Below, in pieces: positions 3,826 through 64,000 of a stretch of 64,000 bases of DNA. The position numbers were made by a program, and so were the translations under genes. Within the stretch, counting starts at the first letter, position 1. Each line of letters begins with the position of its first letter. The notes beneath the pieces were generated by a model, which saw nothing but the letters and a program-made list of their open reading frames with translations, did no database searches and was not told the origin of the DNA. Origin of the DNA: a virus (taxonomy: Duplodnaviria > Caudoviricetes); the IMG/VR virus record IMGVR_UViG_3300009183_000091, positions 1,681 to 65,680 of that record; one strand, given 5' to 3'.

Positions 3826-4044
3826 ATGAATAAAATAGATAAATCTACGCAAAATGCGTTACTCACATTGCGTAATGCAGGTTATTATGTTGGTAATCTT
3901 TGGCATATTGATGATGTAAATAACGATGACTTAACTAAAGAAGAAAAGTTAGATGTATTACATCATGCTATCCATAGAGATTATATATATAGTCTTATCA
4001 ACGAAGCTATCCAAGAAGAAGTATCAGCGTTAACAGAATTTTAA
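3826..4044 (+). CDS. small hypothetical protein
   Basis: 72-aa ORF in tightly packed early cluster. Confidence 0.7.
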   Translation: MNKIDKSTQNALLTLRNAGYYVGNLWHIDDVNNDDLTKEEKLDVLHHAIHRDYIYSLINEAIQEEVSALTEF

Positions 4045-5613: not shown

Positions 5614-5621
5614 TATCTTTG
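5614..5621 (+). promoter_or_regulatory. Bacteroidota sigma70 -7 element
   Basis: TATCTTTG matches TAnnTTTG, upstream of a structured leader. Confidence 0.7.
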
Positions 5622-5730
5622 CTGAGTTCCATCTCACACTATACGAACATAAGGTATTAATGAAGCCTTGCAATGAAACTGAAGTGAGATGCAGTGGATT
5701 TGCGAGGTTTTTTAATTTTATACATCTCAC
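5622..5730 (+). ncRNA. structured 5' leader: two hairpins with complementary loops, the second terminator-like
   Basis: CATCTCAC (5630-5637) complementary to loop GTGAGATG (5684-5691); 11-bp stem 5663-5673/5700-5710 ending in a T run. Confidence 0.65.
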
Positions 5731-6261
5731 ATGAAAAAAGAAAGAAAAGATTTCTTCAAGATTACCTTTGAAGACATGCAACTAGCCAAAGATTTTTTTG
5801 AAAAAGAAAAGCATTACATTGAATGGTTTTATGCTGTTTCTGAATATTATCAGGGCAATTTAATTCAAATTAAAAACAAAATCGTTCAAAAATATTTCAA
5901 TAATTATAAAAAAACGATGGACTTCATAATAAAGTCTAAACACATTGGTGAAAAAGGCGGTTTGCAAAAGGCTATGAATCAAGAAGTTAAGTCTCAGACC
6001 CTAGAAGGGGTGGTAGAGCAACCCTTGTACCATCCCCCCTACCTAATTAGTAATAATAAAATAGAAAATATAAATAATAAAACATTAATTAAAAAAGAAG
6101 AATTAATAAACAAGTTAGAAAAATTAATAAGTGAAGAAAATTTCGATAGGGAAATGACTTATGATTACATGAATGATTATATTCAGTTTGCTGAGTATTA
6201 TTATTCAGATGAAGAAAGAAAAAAGATAGGCGATGATTTGTTACAATTTAAAATAAAATAA
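5731..6261 (+). CDS. putative replication initiator / replisome organiser (DUF6291-like N-terminus)
   Basis: Helical N-domain ending GEKGG, followed by a K/N/E low-complexity linker typical of phage initiators. Confidence 0.5.
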   Translation: MKKERKDFFKITFEDMQLAKDFFEKEKHYIEWFYAVSEYYQGNLIQIKNKIVQKYFNNYKKTMDFIIKSKHIGEKGGLQKAMNQEVKSQTLEGVVEQPLYHPPYLISNNKIENINNKTLIKKEELINKLEKLISEENFDREMTYDYMNDYIQFAEYYYSDEERKKIGDDLLQFKIK

Positions 6262-6657: not shown

Positions 6658-7368
6658 ATGCGTACAGCTTATATATATAAAATAACAAATCCAAAAGGAA
6701 GAATATATGTAGGTTCTACCGTTAAATTAGATCAAAGAATTTCTAGTTATAAAGGCTTACATTGCAAATTACAAGTAAAAATATATAGGTCAATAAAAAA
6801 ATATGGATGGGAAAATCATTTATTTGAAATATTAAAAGAATGCAAAGAATTAGATAGATATTATTATGAATCTTATTATGGTAATTTTTATAATGTATTA
6901 TCTAAAGAAAATTTAAATTTAGCATTGCCAAAATCAGACATGTTAGGTTTTTGCTTATCAGAAGAAACCAGAAAAAAAATAGGTAAAGCACATAAAGGTA
7001 AAATAATAAGCGAAGAACAAAAAAAACAAATGAGAGAAAATCTTAGATTGTCATTAATAAAAGATGGTCATCCAATGAAAGGAAAAAGCCCATGGAACAA
7101 AGGTAAATCATTTCTTTCTGGCGAAAAAAATCCTATGTTTGGAATTAAAAGATCTGAAGATTGGAAAAGACAACATTCTGAAAGAGCTAAATTAAATAAT
7201 GCTTCAGGAGAAAATCACTCCGCTTCAAAAATAGTTTTAGATTTTAATACTGGGATATATTATTTAACAGTAAAAGAAGCTAGCGAATCTCTTGGGATAA
7301 ATTATTCAACCTTAAGATGCAAATTAAATAAATCTAGAAAAAATAAAACGAGTTTAAAATATGTGTAA
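6658..7368 (+). CDS. GIY-YIG homing endonuclease with NUMOD3/NUMOD1-like repeats
   Basis: YIYKITN..IYVGS..R; SEETRKKIG, GEKNPMFG; C-terminal EASESLGINYSTL. Confidence 0.9.
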   Translation: MRTAYIYKITNPKGRIYVGSTVKLDQRISSYKGLHCKLQVKIYRSIKKYGWENHLFEILKECKELDRYYYESYYGNFYNVLSKENLNLALPKSDMLGFCLSEETRKKIGKAHKGKIISEEQKKQMRENLRLSLIKDGHPMKGKSPWNKGKSFLSGEKNPMFGIKRSEDWKRQHSERAKLNNASGENHSASKIVLDFNTGIYYLTVKEASESLGINYSTLRCKLNKSRKNKTSLKYV

Positions 7369-44760: not shown

Positions 44761-44788
44761 ATTATTTTTTTTTTATAAAAAAACTAAA

Positions 44789-44816
44789 CAAATATACGAA
44801 TTATTTATTATATTTG
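44789..44816. promoter_or_regulatory. back-to-back Bacteroidota -7 elements
   Basis: TATATTTG on - (44789-44796) and on + (44809-44816). Confidence 0.7.
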
Positions 44817-44904
44817 TTGTGTCAGGTAGCAGTGACAATTAAGAAATTTATATAAATCCCTATGATGAAAGAACTGCTACTCTGGATTCATAGGGTTTTT
44901 TATT
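44817..44904 (+). ncRNA. structured 5' leader: two hairpins with complementary loops, the second terminator-like
   Basis: GTAGCAGT (44826-44833) complementary to loop ACTGCTAC (44873-44880); CCCTATGA/TCATAGGG stem plus T run. Confidence 0.7.
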
Positions 44905-45354
44905 ATGGAAGAAATTTGGGAAAAAGTATCGTGGGCAAAAAATTATTTGATTTCTAACTTAGGGAATGTTTTTTCATTGAAGTCAAAAAGATTAATGAAA
45001 AAAAATGTAAGCAATAGAGGTTATGAGCGAGTTACTATAAAAGGAAAACAAGTATCAGTACATAGATTGGTTTGCGTTGCTTTTTTAGGAGAAAATAAAA
45101 ATAAAAAAATAGTAAATCATAAAAATGGAATAAAAACAGATAACAGAATTGAAAATTTAGAATGGGTAACTTGTAGAGAAAATACAATGCATTATTATTC
45201 TTCTATTCCTCTTAGGGAAATAAAGTTAAAAACATGTATTAGATATGAAAAATGGATGTATATAAATGGAAAAAATAGATCTATAGGAAGGTTTAAAACA
45301 CCCGAAGAAGCAATTAAAGCATATTATGATAAATTAAAAACTATAAATTTATAG
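44905..45354 (+). CDS. NUMOD4-HNH homing endonuclease with AP2-like tail, antisense to the late operon
   Basis: EEIW..YLISNLG; VHRLV..VNHKNGIKTDNRIENLEW; IGRFKTPEEA. Confidence 0.9.
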   Translation: MEEIWEKVSWAKNYLISNLGNVFSLKSKRLMKKNVSNRGYERVTIKGKQVSVHRLVCVAFLGENKNKKIVNHKNGIKTDNRIENLEWVTCRENTMHYYSSIPLREIKLKTCIRYEKWMYINGKNRSIGRFKTPEEAIKAYYDKLKTINL

Positions 45355-45356
45355 TT

Positions 45357-45548
45357 TCATCGTTTTTTTCTTTTAAACGGAACTAGCTCATTGAGTTTGT
45401 CTGCCCTAGCATTGCAACCACAATCCTTAGCTCCCATCTTCTTAGCTACAAAGTTAGCAACTTTATCCATTCGTGTAGCTTCAGCAACTCGCTTTACTAC
45501 ATCGCCTAAGCCTCTGTATTCTGCCATCTGAAATATATTGTTTACCAT
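45357..45548 (-). CDS. small phage protein
   Basis: GLGDVV...DCGCNARADKLN. Confidence 0.65.
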   Translation of the reverse strand: MVNNIFQMAEYRGLGDVVKRVAEATRMDKVANFVAKKMGAKDCGCNARADKLNELVPFKRKKR

Positions 45549-45817
45549 TTTACTTTATCAGCCCAATAAGCAGCACTCATTTTACCTTTTGCTATATTCT
45601 TAGCGTGACGAGCTTTAAATCTTTTTCTCCTATTAGCGTAAGCCTCAGATTCATTAGCCTTCTTAGGAGATCCTTTAACTCCTTGTTGGCCAAATCGAAT
45701 AATCTTTTCTACTCCATTAGAGCATGCTTTTACAACATGAGATTTTTTAGCGTTATCAGGTGTACTTCTTGGAGAGTTACACTTCATTAACTTCTTATCT
45801 AACTTACTCATAATCAA
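45542..45817 (-). CDS. small basic phage protein
   Basis: IRFGQQG..RRKRFKARH..SAAYWA..KW. Confidence 0.7.
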   Translation of the reverse strand: MIMSKLDKKLMKCNSPRSTPDNAKKSHVVKACSNGVEKIIRFGQQGVKGSPKKANESEAYANRRKRFKARHAKNIAKGKMSAAYWADKVKW

Positions 45818-55206: not shown

Positions 55207-55254
55207 ATCCTGACAAAGATATAAAAAATTTTAAATATGTTTTTTTTGGGAATA

Positions 55255-55470
55255 AAGATTAAGATTAAATTATAATTTATTATGATTTAATTTTTATTTT
55301 TATTTCTTTTTTCTTTTTCTCTTTTTTTTCTTTTTAGATTATGTATAGAGTATATATATTTATATATATACGAATATATATAATCGTTTTTCTTTTTTGA
55401 TTAATTCTTTTTTGGTTCTTTTTTCTTATTAAACTTTTTTCTTTGTTTTTCTTTTTTTTCTCTTTCAGAA
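55255..55470. repeat. AT-rich low-complexity tract (TTTTTC runs around a TA-repeat core)
   Basis: Visible composition; lies between divergent promoters. Confidence 0.7.
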
Positions 55471-55519: not shown

Positions 55520-55527
55520 TAACTTTG
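55520..55527 (+). promoter_or_regulatory. Bacteroidota -7 element
   Basis: TAACTTTG. Confidence 0.7.
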
Positions 55528-55529
55528 TC

Positions 55530-55605
55530 TCGCTTTGAATGGATGATGATTTCATTTGATTTTACTTTGTTGAGAAGGGAGTGAAGGTTAGTAGCTCCCT
55601 TTTTT
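55530..55605 (+). ncRNA. candidate small antisense RNA targeting early-gene start regions
   Basis: Bounded by promoter 55520-55527 and terminator AAGGGAG/CTCCCTT plus T run; contains TTTCAT..ATTTTACTTTGTTGA. Confidence 0.55.
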
Positions 55606-55619
55606 AAACCCTAAGAATT

Positions 55620-55979
55620 ATGAGTTATAAAGTTGTATGTAAAAACGATAAAGGTATGCCGAAGGATTTTCCTGCTAAGTATTGGATTAAGTCTGGAGAA
55701 GTTTATACAGTTATTGATGCTAAGGAGATGGCATACAACAGAATGGCATTAGGATATAAGTTAGAAGAGATTGATATGCCAGAGGATTGTGTGTATCAGT
55801 ATTTTCTAGCGAATAGATTTGTTCCTCAATCAGATGATTTAGAAGCTGAGATGGCTATGCAAGAATTACTTGATGAGGTAAATGAGATTGTCCCCGAAGT
55901 ACAAGGGGTCGTAGGTCAACTAAGGCGATGTGTAAGGACAGTTTACTTGCTAACGCACACTCTAGTTCCTGAATCGTAA
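55620..55979 (+). CDS. hypothetical protein (SH3-like N-part; 3' end overlaps structured sequence)
   Basis: KVVCKND..GEVYTV..YKLEE..F.ANRF. Confidence 0.65.
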   Translation: MSYKVVCKNDKGMPKDFPAKYWIKSGEVYTVIDAKEMAYNRMALGYKLEEIDMPEDCVYQYFLANRFVPQSDDLEAEMAMQELLDEVNEIVPEVQGVVGQLRRCVRTVYLLTHTLVPES

Positions 55980-56026
55980 GTCAGGCAAAGTTGGCAACTC
56001 TTTCGGTCATATTAAAAGTTGCACAT

Positions 56027-56089
56027 AGTCAGGTGGCGGAAGGGTAAACGCACTACAATCAGCAACAGGTTCGAGTCCTGTCCTGACTA
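56027..56089 (+). ncRNA. tRNA-like element lacking a normal anticodon arm
   Basis: AGTCAGG/CCTGACT acceptor, TGGCGGAA..GGTAAACGC D arm, ACAGG-TTCGAGT-CCTGT T arm; only 13 nt between the D and T arms. Confidence 0.7.
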
Positions 56090-56094
56090 CAATA

Positions 56095-56179
56095 AGCACG
56101 TAAACCTAAGTACCTGTACAGCGGTGAGTAACGGGCTAAGTTAGATACAATTCCTCGTGCTGGGAGTAGAATGCTTAGG
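56095..56179 (+). ncRNA. candidate pseudoknotted RNA between tRNA-like elements
   Basis: CCTAAGTA/TGCTTAGG closing stem, two internal hairpins, AGCACG/CGTGCT loop pairing. Confidence 0.45.
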
Positions 56180-56192
56180 AGCGTGTTTTTAT

Positions 56193-56265
56193 AGCCAAGT
56201 AGCTTAGTGGTAAAGCCCGACCTTTTAAGTCGGAGTACGCAGAGTTCGATTCTTTGTCTTGGCTC
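56193..56265 (+). tRNA. tRNA-Lys(UUU), atypical
   Basis: AGCCAAG/CTTGGCT acceptor, GCTT/AAGC D stem, CCGAC-CTTTTAA-GTCGG anticodon arm, GTTCGATTC T loop; no encoded CCA. Confidence 0.7.
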
Positions 56266-63536: not shown

Positions 63537-63563
63537 AGTTGTTTAAGTTGTTTAAGTTGTTTA
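63537..63563. repeat. 9-bp tandem repeat
   Basis: (AGTTGTTTA)x3, with a fourth copy at 63591-63599. Confidence 0.8.
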
Positions 63564-64000
63564 AGGATTAGTGTATTATATCGCTCTATTAGTTGTTTAG
63601 ATGAGATCTGTGCGACTATAAGTACCTATCCTAGTACTACTATCCCTCCCCTCTTTTAAATCGCTTAGAAGGGCTTATATGGAATGCTTGTCTGTCTGGC
63701 CGATTTTATTTGTCCAGTATTTTGCGCTAAAAACTTGACATACATACCCCTCTATACGTTATCACATATAACTTGGGCGATTTCCACCTATCTATATTCT
63801 ATTGCATATAATTACATCCCTATTAACCCTATGTGGCAAATATTACCCCCTATCCTTTATCGTAATGTAAAATACTATTTCCAATAAGCTGTTGTTTTGT
63901 AAAAAGTAAATACGTTAGAAAAAAGAATACGTGTCTACAGAAGTCTTATACGCGTGTACCTATCCCCTCCCATTCTCAAAAGGAAAAGCGCAAATCTAAA

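Follow-up and report, generated by a model that had tools for sequence, protein, structure and literature searches.

A putative attenuator RNA with a kissing loop, found upstream of a phage homing endonuclease gene, belongs to a covarying family of leaders in Bacteroidota phages

Introduction

The c4 antisense RNA of phages P1 and P7, arranged in the layout a1b1 - a'b' - a2b2, is a two-loop substrate of RNase P that blocks a ribosome-binding site; pT181 and pIP501 employ countertranscript (antisense RNA) attenuation, and loop-loop folds are known from the L2-L3 contact of the purine riboswitch and from RNA I/RNA II of ColE1. In phage P4 immunity, as outlined in PMC4825925, seqB of the CI RNA pairs with the upstream seqA and with the downstream seqC, and the same source presents IsrK of the Gifsy-1 prophage as a case of one promoter giving rise to both a short terminated RNA and a read-through mRNA, the short form being able to pair with the long one. 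Here we describe a leader RNA in which the loops of two hairpins are complementary to each other and one of the hairpins carries the signature of an intrinsic terminator. It is located in a 64-kb piece (hereafter the window) of the IMG/VR virus record IMGVR_UViG_3300009183_000091 (65.7 kb, estimated as 97% complete), in front of a homing endonuclease gene (site 2, positions 44809-44907), and another copy is present at positions 5614-5713 (site 1).

A sequence-only reading of this DNA had interpreted the two sites as modular attenuators with a fixed internal loop and orthogonal loop pairing, employed to restrain dosage-sensitive genes. The observation is confirmed and greatly extended by the present analysis, and the interpretation is partly supported. 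We propose, with a probability of roughly 0.6, that site 2 is the 5' leader of a mobile homing endonuclease gene and acts as a promoter-proximal attenuator, giving a short terminated RNA and some read-through.

A Covarying Family of Leader RNAs

Judged by sequence comparisons, the site 2 leader is a member of a real RNA family, whose layout is common to more than 150 distinct IMG/VR leaders: a TAnnTTTG promoter box, a first hairpin with a loop (box 1) complementary to the apical loop of a second hairpin (the anti-box), an internal loop within the second hairpin, a U tract, and then a gene. The covariation of the stems and of the loop pairing, previously claimed from two copies, is borne out in this collection of distinct sequences. 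Homologues of the 176-amino-acid gene that follows site 1 are preceded in IMG/VR by leaders of the same logic but with different box sequences. A pattern tied to the start of the endonuclease matched 62 IMG/VR stretches, 26 with the stems and 36 without, one pair among the latter presenting a differently built variant with box 1, an anti-box and box 2, a further copy of box 1. A general hairpin-2 pattern was found at 119 or more loci; of the 119 listed, 37, amounting to 33 distinct hairpins, passed the descriptor. In the first 25 distinct leaders, the complement of the apical loop found within the leader spans 8 nucleotides (nt) in 24 cases and 7 nt in one, versus an average of 4.0 nt for non-cognate loop-leader pairs, and box 1 always starts at +17 to +21 from the promoter T. 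The TAnnTTTG box is placed at a fixed distance in 55 of the 58 descriptor hits, and the distance from this box to hairpin 1 is nearly constant across the family (3-6 nt).

Two alignments were examined, selected on different halves of the leader (L and G numbers denote loci and genomes, respectively). Alignment A2, of 58 distinct leaders with 24 loop codes, was selected on hairpin 2 (L278, L314 and L353, with no TAnnTTTG box, were omitted), and 95.1% of its cells are paired, versus 67.3% in shuffles. The second collection comes from an unbiased scan, in which only the promoter, the tail of the hairpin-1 loop (ACAYYATA) and the end of the spacer (RTTATT) were specified, and which returned at least 111 distinct matches. 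Among the 111 matches listed, the stretch common to the box-1 window and to the apical loop, parsed independently, is at least 7 nt long in 93 and 8 nt long in 90, and about 10 are plainly random, with no hairpin. Alignment A3 contains 101 rows, of which 98 are distinct, the hairpin-less matches (L491, L496, L498, L501, L504, L508, L512, L522, L544, and L555) having been dropped, and 96.9% of its cells are paired, versus 68.0% in shuffles, none of 500 reaching this value, and 32-48% with slid partners. The kissing helix is paired in 99.5% of the cells, and six of its eight pairs show two-sided changes, each in 26-55 sequences, the remaining two being an invariant A-U and an invariant C-G whose AC side was part of the search pattern. 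Hairpin 1 is 97.1% paired with all five pairs covarying, the outer stem of hairpin 2 is 93.9% paired with 9 of 11 pairs covarying, and the inner stem is 99.5% paired with all four pairs covarying. The outer stem is rich in U-G and G-U pairs (in 55, 27, 20, and 23 of the 98 rows at four pairs), and as these would be A-C mismatches on the other strand, the structure must belong to the sense RNA, and not to the DNA or to the opposite strand. The U run following hairpin 2, never selected for, is at least 90% conserved in A3. The lengths of the spacer and of the hairpin-1 loop compensate for each other, the spacer being 19-20 nt with an 8-nt loop (type B, as at site 2) and about 12 nt with a 14-15-nt loop (type A, as at site 1), suggesting that the kissing is probably intramolecular. 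Unpaired bases are conserved as well, in the hairpin-1 loop tail (ACAYYAUA), in the spacer (..UUAUU), and as GA on both strands of the internal loop; this conservation is in part imposed by the search patterns, and each half was checked in the set selected on the other half.

At site 2 itself, all the elements described in the sequence-only reading are present (Table 1), and their order is identical at site 1. The claimed 8-nt loop complementarity holds for seven Watson-Crick pairs within the loops (GUAGCAG/CUGCUAC), and the eighth pair requires U44833 from the 3' arm of hairpin 1; among shuffled leaders, 0.78% contain a loop match of 7 nt or longer. The folding energy of hairpin 2 is -13.7 kcal/mol at site 2 (z -2.9 by comparison with shuffles) and -16.3 kcal/mol at site 1 (z -3.6), and its G+C-based stem (CCC.../...GGG), positioned directly before U6, provides the signature of an intrinsic terminator. 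Hairpin 1 of site 2 is weak in isolation (-4.7 kcal/mol, z -1.1, with 30 of 200 shuffles folding equally well), and thus the case for it rests on the covariation among the relatives. This weakness, along with the fact that hairpin 2 of site 2 is also fully paired, and again followed by a U-rich stretch, in its reverse complement, is what might be expected if an ordinary, possibly bidirectional terminator happened to lie beside an unrelated small hairpin. Such a chance resemblance is, however, refuted by the covariation, as well as by the fixed geometry and by the specific model matches, and we consider its probability negligible. A covariance model built from the relatives (R1) assigns 54.1 bits (E 3.5e-09) to site 2 and 87.8 bits to site 1, the next match in the window scoring 18.0, and a descriptor (outer stem of at least 5 bp, TGAA, inner stem of at least 3 bp, loop, GGAT) finds exactly sites 1 and 2 on both strands of the window. 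A scan for sigma-70 promoters and simple terminators was uninformative for the organism in question.

Table 1. Coordinates of the two leaders and of the endonuclease cassette in the window (ORF, open reading frame; aa, amino acids)
Feature	Position	Strand	Details
Promoter box, site 2	44809-44816	+	TATATTTG; Bacteroidota sigma-A -7 box by motif; promoter activity predicted
Hairpin 1, site 2	44820-44837	+	TGTCA 44820-24; loop GGTAGCAG 44825-32 (box 1); TGACA 44833-37
Spacer, site 2	44838-44857	+	A/U-rich, 20 nt
Hairpin 2 outer stem, site 2	44858-65 / 44888-95	+	5' arm CCCTATGA; 3' arm TCATAGGG; 8 bp
Hairpin 2 internal loop, site 2	44866-69 / 44884-87	+	TGAA / GGAT
Hairpin 2 inner stem, site 2	44870-72 / 44881-83	+	AGA / TCT; 3 bp
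Hairpin 2 apical loop, site 2	44873-80	+	ACTGCTAC; anti-box, 8 nt
U6 tract (T6), site 2	44896-44901	+	with hairpin 2, intrinsic-terminator signature; followed by ATT, then ATG
Start codon of the endonuclease ORF	44905	+	ATG of the 149-aa ORF; hairpin 2 ends 9 nt upstream; stem end at -10
Homing endonuclease, HNH_3 + NUMOD4	44905-45354	+	149 aa; antisense to the surrounding late operon
Promoter box, minus-strand copy	44789-44796	-	TATATTTG; aimed at the 1517-aa gene (ATG 44760); promoter function predicted from the motif
Free-standing homing endonuclease cassette	44761-45356	.	about 596 bp; divergent promoter, sense promoter, leader RNA, and endonuclease ORF
Leader at site 1 (type A)	5614-5733	+	87.8 bits with the covariance model
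Promoter box, site 1	5614-21	+	TATCTTTG
Hairpin 1, site 1	5626-29 / 5645-48	+	GTTC / GAAC; box 1 CATCTCAC at 5630-37
Hairpin 2, site 1	5662-5711	+	TGAA 5674-77; loop AAGTGAGATG 5682-91; GGAT 5696-99
Box 2, site 1	5723-5730	+	CATCTCAC, further copy of box 1; directly before ATG 5731 of the 176-aa ORF

The window has a G+C content of 33.6%. Plus-strand genes occupy its first 17.2 kb or so, beyond which a long structural block is encoded on the minus strand, and the Bacteroidota sigma-A box TAnnTTTG is present in intergenic regions. A GIY-YIG + NUMOD3 homing endonuclease (6658-7368; phrog_314, 3.5e-30) is encoded in the same operon as the site 1 leader, two genes 3' of it. A third arrangement of promoter, leader, and terminator is found at 55520-55622, where TAACTTTG is followed by a leader of about 60 nt, a hairpin (GGGAG-TGAAGGTTAGTAG-CTCCC) and T6, with the ATG of a 119-aa ORF 13 nt later; a complement of the hairpin loop was looked for in this leader, and none was found. 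Two further regions are rich in repeats. One is a 480-nt divergent intergenic region (55230-55470) with long T-rich, CTTTTTT-like repeats and an AT-alternating palindrome, and the other (63540-63600) is in a 476-nt gap near the right end, with GTTGTTTAA in three tandem copies and a fourth close by; these regions may represent origin or packaging signals.

The Internal Loop as a Module

A part of the original description that did not survive is the fixed nature of the UGAA/GGAU internal loop. In the set selected blind to hairpin 2, the exact sequence is present in 74 of the 111 listed matches by a general parser (76 by the strict descriptor), the variants including UGAA/GGAG, UGAA/GGAC, CGAA/CGAA, CGAA/GGAC, UGAU/UGAG, UGAU/AGAU, UGGA/UGAA, and the strand-swapped GGAU/UGAA. 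Nearly all of these variants keep GA on both strands, as tandem sheared G.A pairs require. A second class of leaders (L003, L004, L579, Flavobacterium phage 11b, and Olleya phage Harreka_1) possesses, at the same place, (N)AGUA/GAAA, a module that we take to resemble the loop-E or bulged-G motif. Thus, as judged by sequence, geometry and pairing are what stays constant, and the internal loop is a module.

Some of the individual leaders are unusual in this respect. One (L497, ~3839-3948, minus strand) has GGAU on the 5' side and UGAA on the 3' side, with all other parts in place. In two Muminvirus leaders (L586/L587; tooticki6-1, MN812240.1, 12625-12738, and lillamy9-1, MN812212.1, 14098-14211), the two hairpins have traded loop sequences, with AAGUGAGACG in hairpin 1 and CGUCUCAC-ACUAC in hairpin 2, the reverse of the usual order. 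A kink-turn or box C/D motif was considered and rejected, as the loop is a symmetric 4x4 loop (UGAA/GGAU), and not a 3-nt bulge followed by tandem G.A pairs, with the C stem next to the GA of the strand that has no bulge. Matches to small nucleolar RNA families score 21-30 bits versus cut-offs of 36-90, and they stem from AUGAUGA, at site 2 only.

The Endonuclease Cassette

The ORF following site 2 encodes an HNH endonuclease by several measures (HNH_3, 8.7e-15; NUMOD4, 2.8e-08; phrog_59, 1.7e-33). In all four relatives in which the corresponding junction is present (L092, L093, L094, and L095), the gene encoding a 63-aa protein abuts or overlaps the gene encoding the 1517-aa protein, whose N-terminus is 60-86% identical in these loci, with no intergenic DNA, indicating that some 596 bp are inserted in the window. 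One of these relatives (L092) encodes a different endonuclease (36% identical), inserted at another place and also antisense, preceded by a nearly identical leader with the same hairpin-2 stems and loop code. Two more cassettes (L210 and L222) present compensatory changes in hairpin 1, in the kissing pair, in the inner stem, and in the outer stem; examples for hairpin 1 are TGTCG/CGACA in L222 and GTCA/TGGC in L092. The block of the divergent promoter, AACAAATATAC, is invariant in all four type-B cassettes aligned. With the insertion absent from the relatives and with matching leaders in the cassettes of L092, L210, and L222, site 2 is, on comparative sequence grounds, part of a self-contained mobile unit. 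We regard as established the sequence elements, the structure with its kissing interaction (by covariation), the strand, the gene context, and the insertion of the cassette.

The near-identity of leaders in front of two endonucleases that are only 36% identical and inserted at different places could also point to a role at the level of DNA or of RNA processing, with the promoter and the hairpins serving as homology for modular shuffling, or as an RNase processing or 5' stabilizer site, and with the kissing being incidental. The promoter-upstream DNA common to both leaders of genome G007 fits such a role, as does the precedent of PeSLs, promoter plus stem-loop cassettes that shuffle genes, as presented in PMC2839356. 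However, homology for recombination leaves the compensatory changes in four helices and the strand bias of the G-U pairs unexplained, and the PeSL stem-loops, as far as this source describes them, are mostly located at the promoter or on its upstream side, with a minority immediately past the -10 box, and not in a transcribed leader. We therefore find this explanation very improbable.

The synteny of the window could not be followed via a 91-aa protein encoded nearby (45542-45817, minus strand; phrog_7595, 2.3e-32), as it is too widespread: its relatives are encoded by 595 of 600 IMG/VR pattern matches, in unrelated neighbourhoods.

Proposed Mechanism and Its Alternatives

From the arrangement described above we infer promoter activity, a start site, termination, read-through, and functional consequences of the kissing. 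Host RNA polymerase would start at the TAnnTTTG promoter, about 5 nt past its G, leaving the RNA 5' end flush with hairpin 1, with the start predicted at G44821 for site 2 and at G5626 for site 1, in each case the first paired base of hairpin 1, and with the rest of the family following the same placement. The placement of the box at -12 to -5 is borrowed from Flavobacterium psychrophilum, in which it was mapped to this position according to the promoter data given in PMC9723704. If the start is indeed at G44821, the T44820-A44837 pair falls outside the RNA, and hairpin 1 would consist of 4 bp. About 40-60 nt later, hairpin 2 with its U tract would act as an intrinsic terminator, and most transcripts would end there, as compact molecules with a length of about 80 nt in type B (site 2) and of about 95 nt in type A (site 1). 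Such an RNA would probably be stable, both of its ends being in or beside helices, with a flush hairpin at the 5' end and the terminator at the 3' end. A minority of transcripts would read through into the gene, and downstream expression would be kept low. As the terminator is only 80-100 nt after the start, the plain interpretation is that of a promoter-proximal attenuator.

At site 2, the short distance from the hairpin to the AUG may also result in a structured initiation region in the read-through mRNA, a second brake. Bacteroidota mRNAs have no Shine-Dalgarno sequence and tend to be less structured at positions -20 to +20, as reported in PMC6847099, and since the stem end is located within this zone, the endonuclease would be held down twice. 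Box 1 would kiss the anti-box of the same molecule, above the purine-rich, non-Watson-Crick internal loop (tandem G.A). Our best guess is that the kissing locks the tip of the terminator in one fold, which would make termination reproducible and the RNA stable, and that it keeps the anti-box from other partners.

A number of points weigh against the attenuator interpretation. The kissing involves loop bases only, so the terminator stem is neither built nor broken by it, and the role ascribed to it above is a guess. A conserved antiterminator (competing) pairing was looked for in the leaders and none was found, and thus nothing shows that termination is regulated. The hairpin at site 1 could simply terminate the upstream gene. 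A further helix, closing the 5' end onto the tail after the terminator into a three-way junction, was also considered and rejected, the longest run being 3.81 nt for cognate versus 3.68 nt for non-cognate sequences. The UGAA/GGAU model finds nothing in two close relatives, G001 and G003, and at the position of site 1 G001 carries a differently built leader with boxes (L001), suggesting that the exact architecture is replaceable. In sequencing runs, the share of sampled words is 0.33-0.47 for DNA (freshwater, lake, wetland, and soil metagenomes) and only 0.06-0.09 for RNA. Finally, the conserved unpaired bases hint at a bound factor that the attenuator explanation leaves unnamed.

Such a factor, a phage or host protein or a ligand, would be central if the leader operated as a switch, with the kissing fold, the GA/GA or AGUA/GAA module and the conserved single strands binding it and with termination toggled as a result, which would time the leader-carrying operons together. 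The logic would resemble that of a riboswitch or of lambda nut/N. The conservation of the unpaired ACA..AUA, ..UUAUU, and GA/GA beyond the needs of folding, even when the internal loop is strand-swapped, the existence of two interchangeable purine-rich modules at the same place, and the presence of one or two copies per complete genome, at operon starts, all agree with a switch of this kind. On the other hand, the downstream genes are diverse, so no candidate factor is linked to the leader, the antiterminator helix was not found, and the conservation is partly imposed by the search patterns. We consider a factor-dependent switch distinctly unlikely.

Box 2, present at the AUG at site 1 and in a few other leaders, would add a further layer to the attenuator proposed above. 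There the anti-box may switch between box 1 and the start region, resulting in translational control, and covariation of box 2 with the anti-box is seen in a number of codes (site 1, L184/L205/L226, L001, L003/4, L177, and L579). In the UGAA/GGAU class it is found in 7 of 159 rows, representing six leaders and two codes, and it appears to be more regular in the AGUA/GAAA class. Alternatively, the terminated leader could be the main product, a dual-function small RNA acting in trans via the anti-box (or box 1) on sibling genome copies, either on their box 2 at start codons or on box 1 in their nascent leaders, giving gene-dosage feedback by a mechanism like that of IsrK or P4 CI as these are outlined in PMC4825925. 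Its flush 5' hairpin and terminator 3' end are typical of stable small RNAs, a box 2 identical to box 1 is located 0-5 nt before the AUG at site 1 and in several codes, and replication genes are often found downstream, as in P4 in the same account. However, box 2 is rare in the UGAA/GGAU class and absent at site 2, and the anti-box of the short RNA is already paired in cis. GTAGCAG, although found 12 times in the window (5.1 expected), is beside no start codon there except for the site 2 element itself, and CATCTCAC is found in the window only in the site 1 element and at one more place, 58643.

The codes of the two copies in the window bear on this possibility as well. The two do not cross-pair, the cognate duplexes being at -11.8 and -10.8 kcal/mol and the crossed ones at +0.7 and -0.4 kcal/mol, so this part of the claim of mutually orthogonal loops stands, and it would suit an RNA acting in trans. 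Ordinary compensatory drift could account for it as well as selection for orthogonality could: with at least 24 codes in circulation, two codes in one genome are expected to differ, and not to cross-pair, even without selection. On balance, we regard a dual-function small RNA as possible, if rather unlikely. A more elaborate and somewhat less likely version is that the leaders form an addressable sense-RNA feedback, in which abundant terminated RNAs, each with both a box and the matching anti-box, would kiss the nascent leaders or the start-codon boxes of sibling genome copies with the same 8-nt code, with read-through or translation falling as the genome copy number rises. If true, this would represent plasmid-style dosage control with no antisense promoter, in which independent codes govern the replication operon and the selfish endonuclease separately.

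Distribution, Downstream Genes, and Significance

Among the genes found after the leaders are those for HNH endonucleases, for DUF6291, 'replication initiation O-like' and 'DnaD-like helicase loader' proteins, for one SNF2/DEAD helicase and for one DUF6378 protein, along with several unknown ORFs of 57-129 aa. Replication-module genes are frequent among the targets examined, and homing endonucleases are only part of the picture. The proposed use on dosage-sensitive genes is plausible for both homing endonucleases and replication initiators, but the link to homing endonucleases covers only a part of the family. As both replication operons and selfish endonuclease cassettes begin with the leader, it would, if our interpretation is correct, probably set the amount of the replication initiator or of the nuclease.

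Each of the five complete or near-complete genomes checked has one or two copies of the leader, at operon starts. One (G008) has a leader of each class, and in another (G007, a 47-kb phage) an endonuclease gene and a DnaD-like gene are each preceded by a leader, the two codes being different. These two leaders (L575 and L578) share about 30 nt of near-identical DNA upstream of the promoter box and differ in all stems and loops, which suggests, from sequence comparison, that the regulatory unit was duplicated and the RNA part then diverged.

Related forms are also present in cultured phages of Flavobacterium, Olleya, and Polaribacter (phage 11b, Muminvirus, Harreka_1, and P12002L), obtained by a protein search combined with the RNA model. 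In five cultured phages, R1 matches a leader upstream of the replication module (E 2e-5 to 3e-3), with an 8-nt or a 7-nt loop pair in every case. In BLAST searches of the leaders versus cultured phages, only the coding start of the endonuclease matched. In four cultured-phage records, the only features annotated in the stretches shown are coding sequences, none covering the leader. Polaribacter phage P12002L also carries, before its HNH gene and after an ordinary terminator (L358, 1400-1515), a 7-nt complementary pair formed by TCGTAGC in a leader and by GCTACGA, located in a hairpin loop closed by 7 bp; neither a U tract nor a GA/GA loop comes after it, and the arrangement, which we leave unclassified, could be a degenerate relative or a product of chance. 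In the genomes of 185,579 species, only three of the 119 matches to a strict pattern are true leaders, suggesting that host genomes rarely carry the leader in this strict form.

The family is apparently undescribed. At the gathering score of Rfam 15, the only match in the window is a tRNA gene (56193-56264; RF00005, 43.5 bits), sites 1 and 2 being nowhere near a match, and there are no matches in eight related loci. A description of the family was not found in the literature searched, although large motif catalogues published only in supplements could contain it. The tRNA gene is located within a 298-nt gap, with an upstream region (56000-56190) that is G+C-richer than its surroundings.

If our conclusions are correct, this is among the best-supported new structured RNA families in Bacteroidota phages, a group whose gene regulation is almost unexplored. 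More than 150 distinct examples of the family are available, one of its four covarying helices forms a pseudoknot, and its purine-rich loop modules are of two interchangeable kinds. The related copies in cultured phages (Flavobacterium phage 11b, Muminvirus, Olleya phage Harreka_1, and Polaribacter phage P12002L) make it directly testable. A variable 8-nt code on a fixed scaffold would be attractive as a source of orthogonal regulatory parts for Bacteroidota, and the homing endonuclease cassette offers a compact, self-insulated design, with back-to-back promoters and a terminator.

Comparison with Known Systems

One of the closest likenesses is to promoter-proximal intrinsic-terminator attenuators, in which a promoter is likewise followed by a short leader, by a G+C-based hairpin and its U tract, and then by the gene. 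Compared to the classic attenuators, the phage leader lacks a leader peptide, an antiterminator/anti-antiterminator set and a known ligand, but it has a terminator whose apical loop is pseudoknotted to a 5' hairpin, and a conserved GA/GA module in the stem.

As to P4 CI, complementary boxes up- and downstream of an anti-box are found in one leader before replication genes, and the outcome is premature termination (predicted in the case of the phage leader), all of these being points of likeness as far as the system is outlined in PMC4825925. In that outline, CI is excised from the leader and works as an antisense RNA in its own right, whereas here box 1 and the anti-box are in one terminated RNA. 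The downstream box is present here only in a minority of leaders, at the AUG (site 2 has the upstream box only, and site 1 has both), and there is no similarity to CI by sequence or model, with no match in Rfam. The c4 system shares with the phage leader the loops complementary to boxes before and after in the same transcript, with phage-specific codes setting the specificity; it differs in having two such loops in the small RNA, and the Rfam C4 family is not matched by the leader. IsrK, in the outline given in PMC4825925, resembles the phage leader as interpreted here in its two products from one promoter, the short RNA and the read-through mRNA, which can pair with each other. It activates translation by remodelling a long structure, in contrast to the phage leader, and presents there neither a kissing hairpin pair nor sequence similarity.

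In the case of pT181/pIP501-type attenuation, a conserved antisense promoter would be expected. It was looked for and rejected, CAAANNTA being found anywhere in the leader plus 120 nt in only 6 of 58 sequences, at no fixed place. The purine riboswitch L2-L3 contact and ColE1 RNA I/RNA II resemble the phage leader in the 7-8 Watson-Crick pairs between two hairpin loops, but here the pairing is probably intramolecular and joins a hairpin at the 5' end to a terminator, with no sign of a three-way junction or of an antisense transcript. Finally, the PeSL cassettes of T4-type phages, as characterized in PMC2839356, are small promoter and terminator units that travel with accessory genes and insulate transcription, and site 2, with its back-to-back promoters, may be viewed as a similar self-contained cassette. 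The PeSLs of that account are plain G/C hairpins, found for the most part at the promoter or ahead of it, with no covarying tertiary pairing, while in the leader described here two hairpins within the predicted transcript are joined by a covarying kissing interaction.

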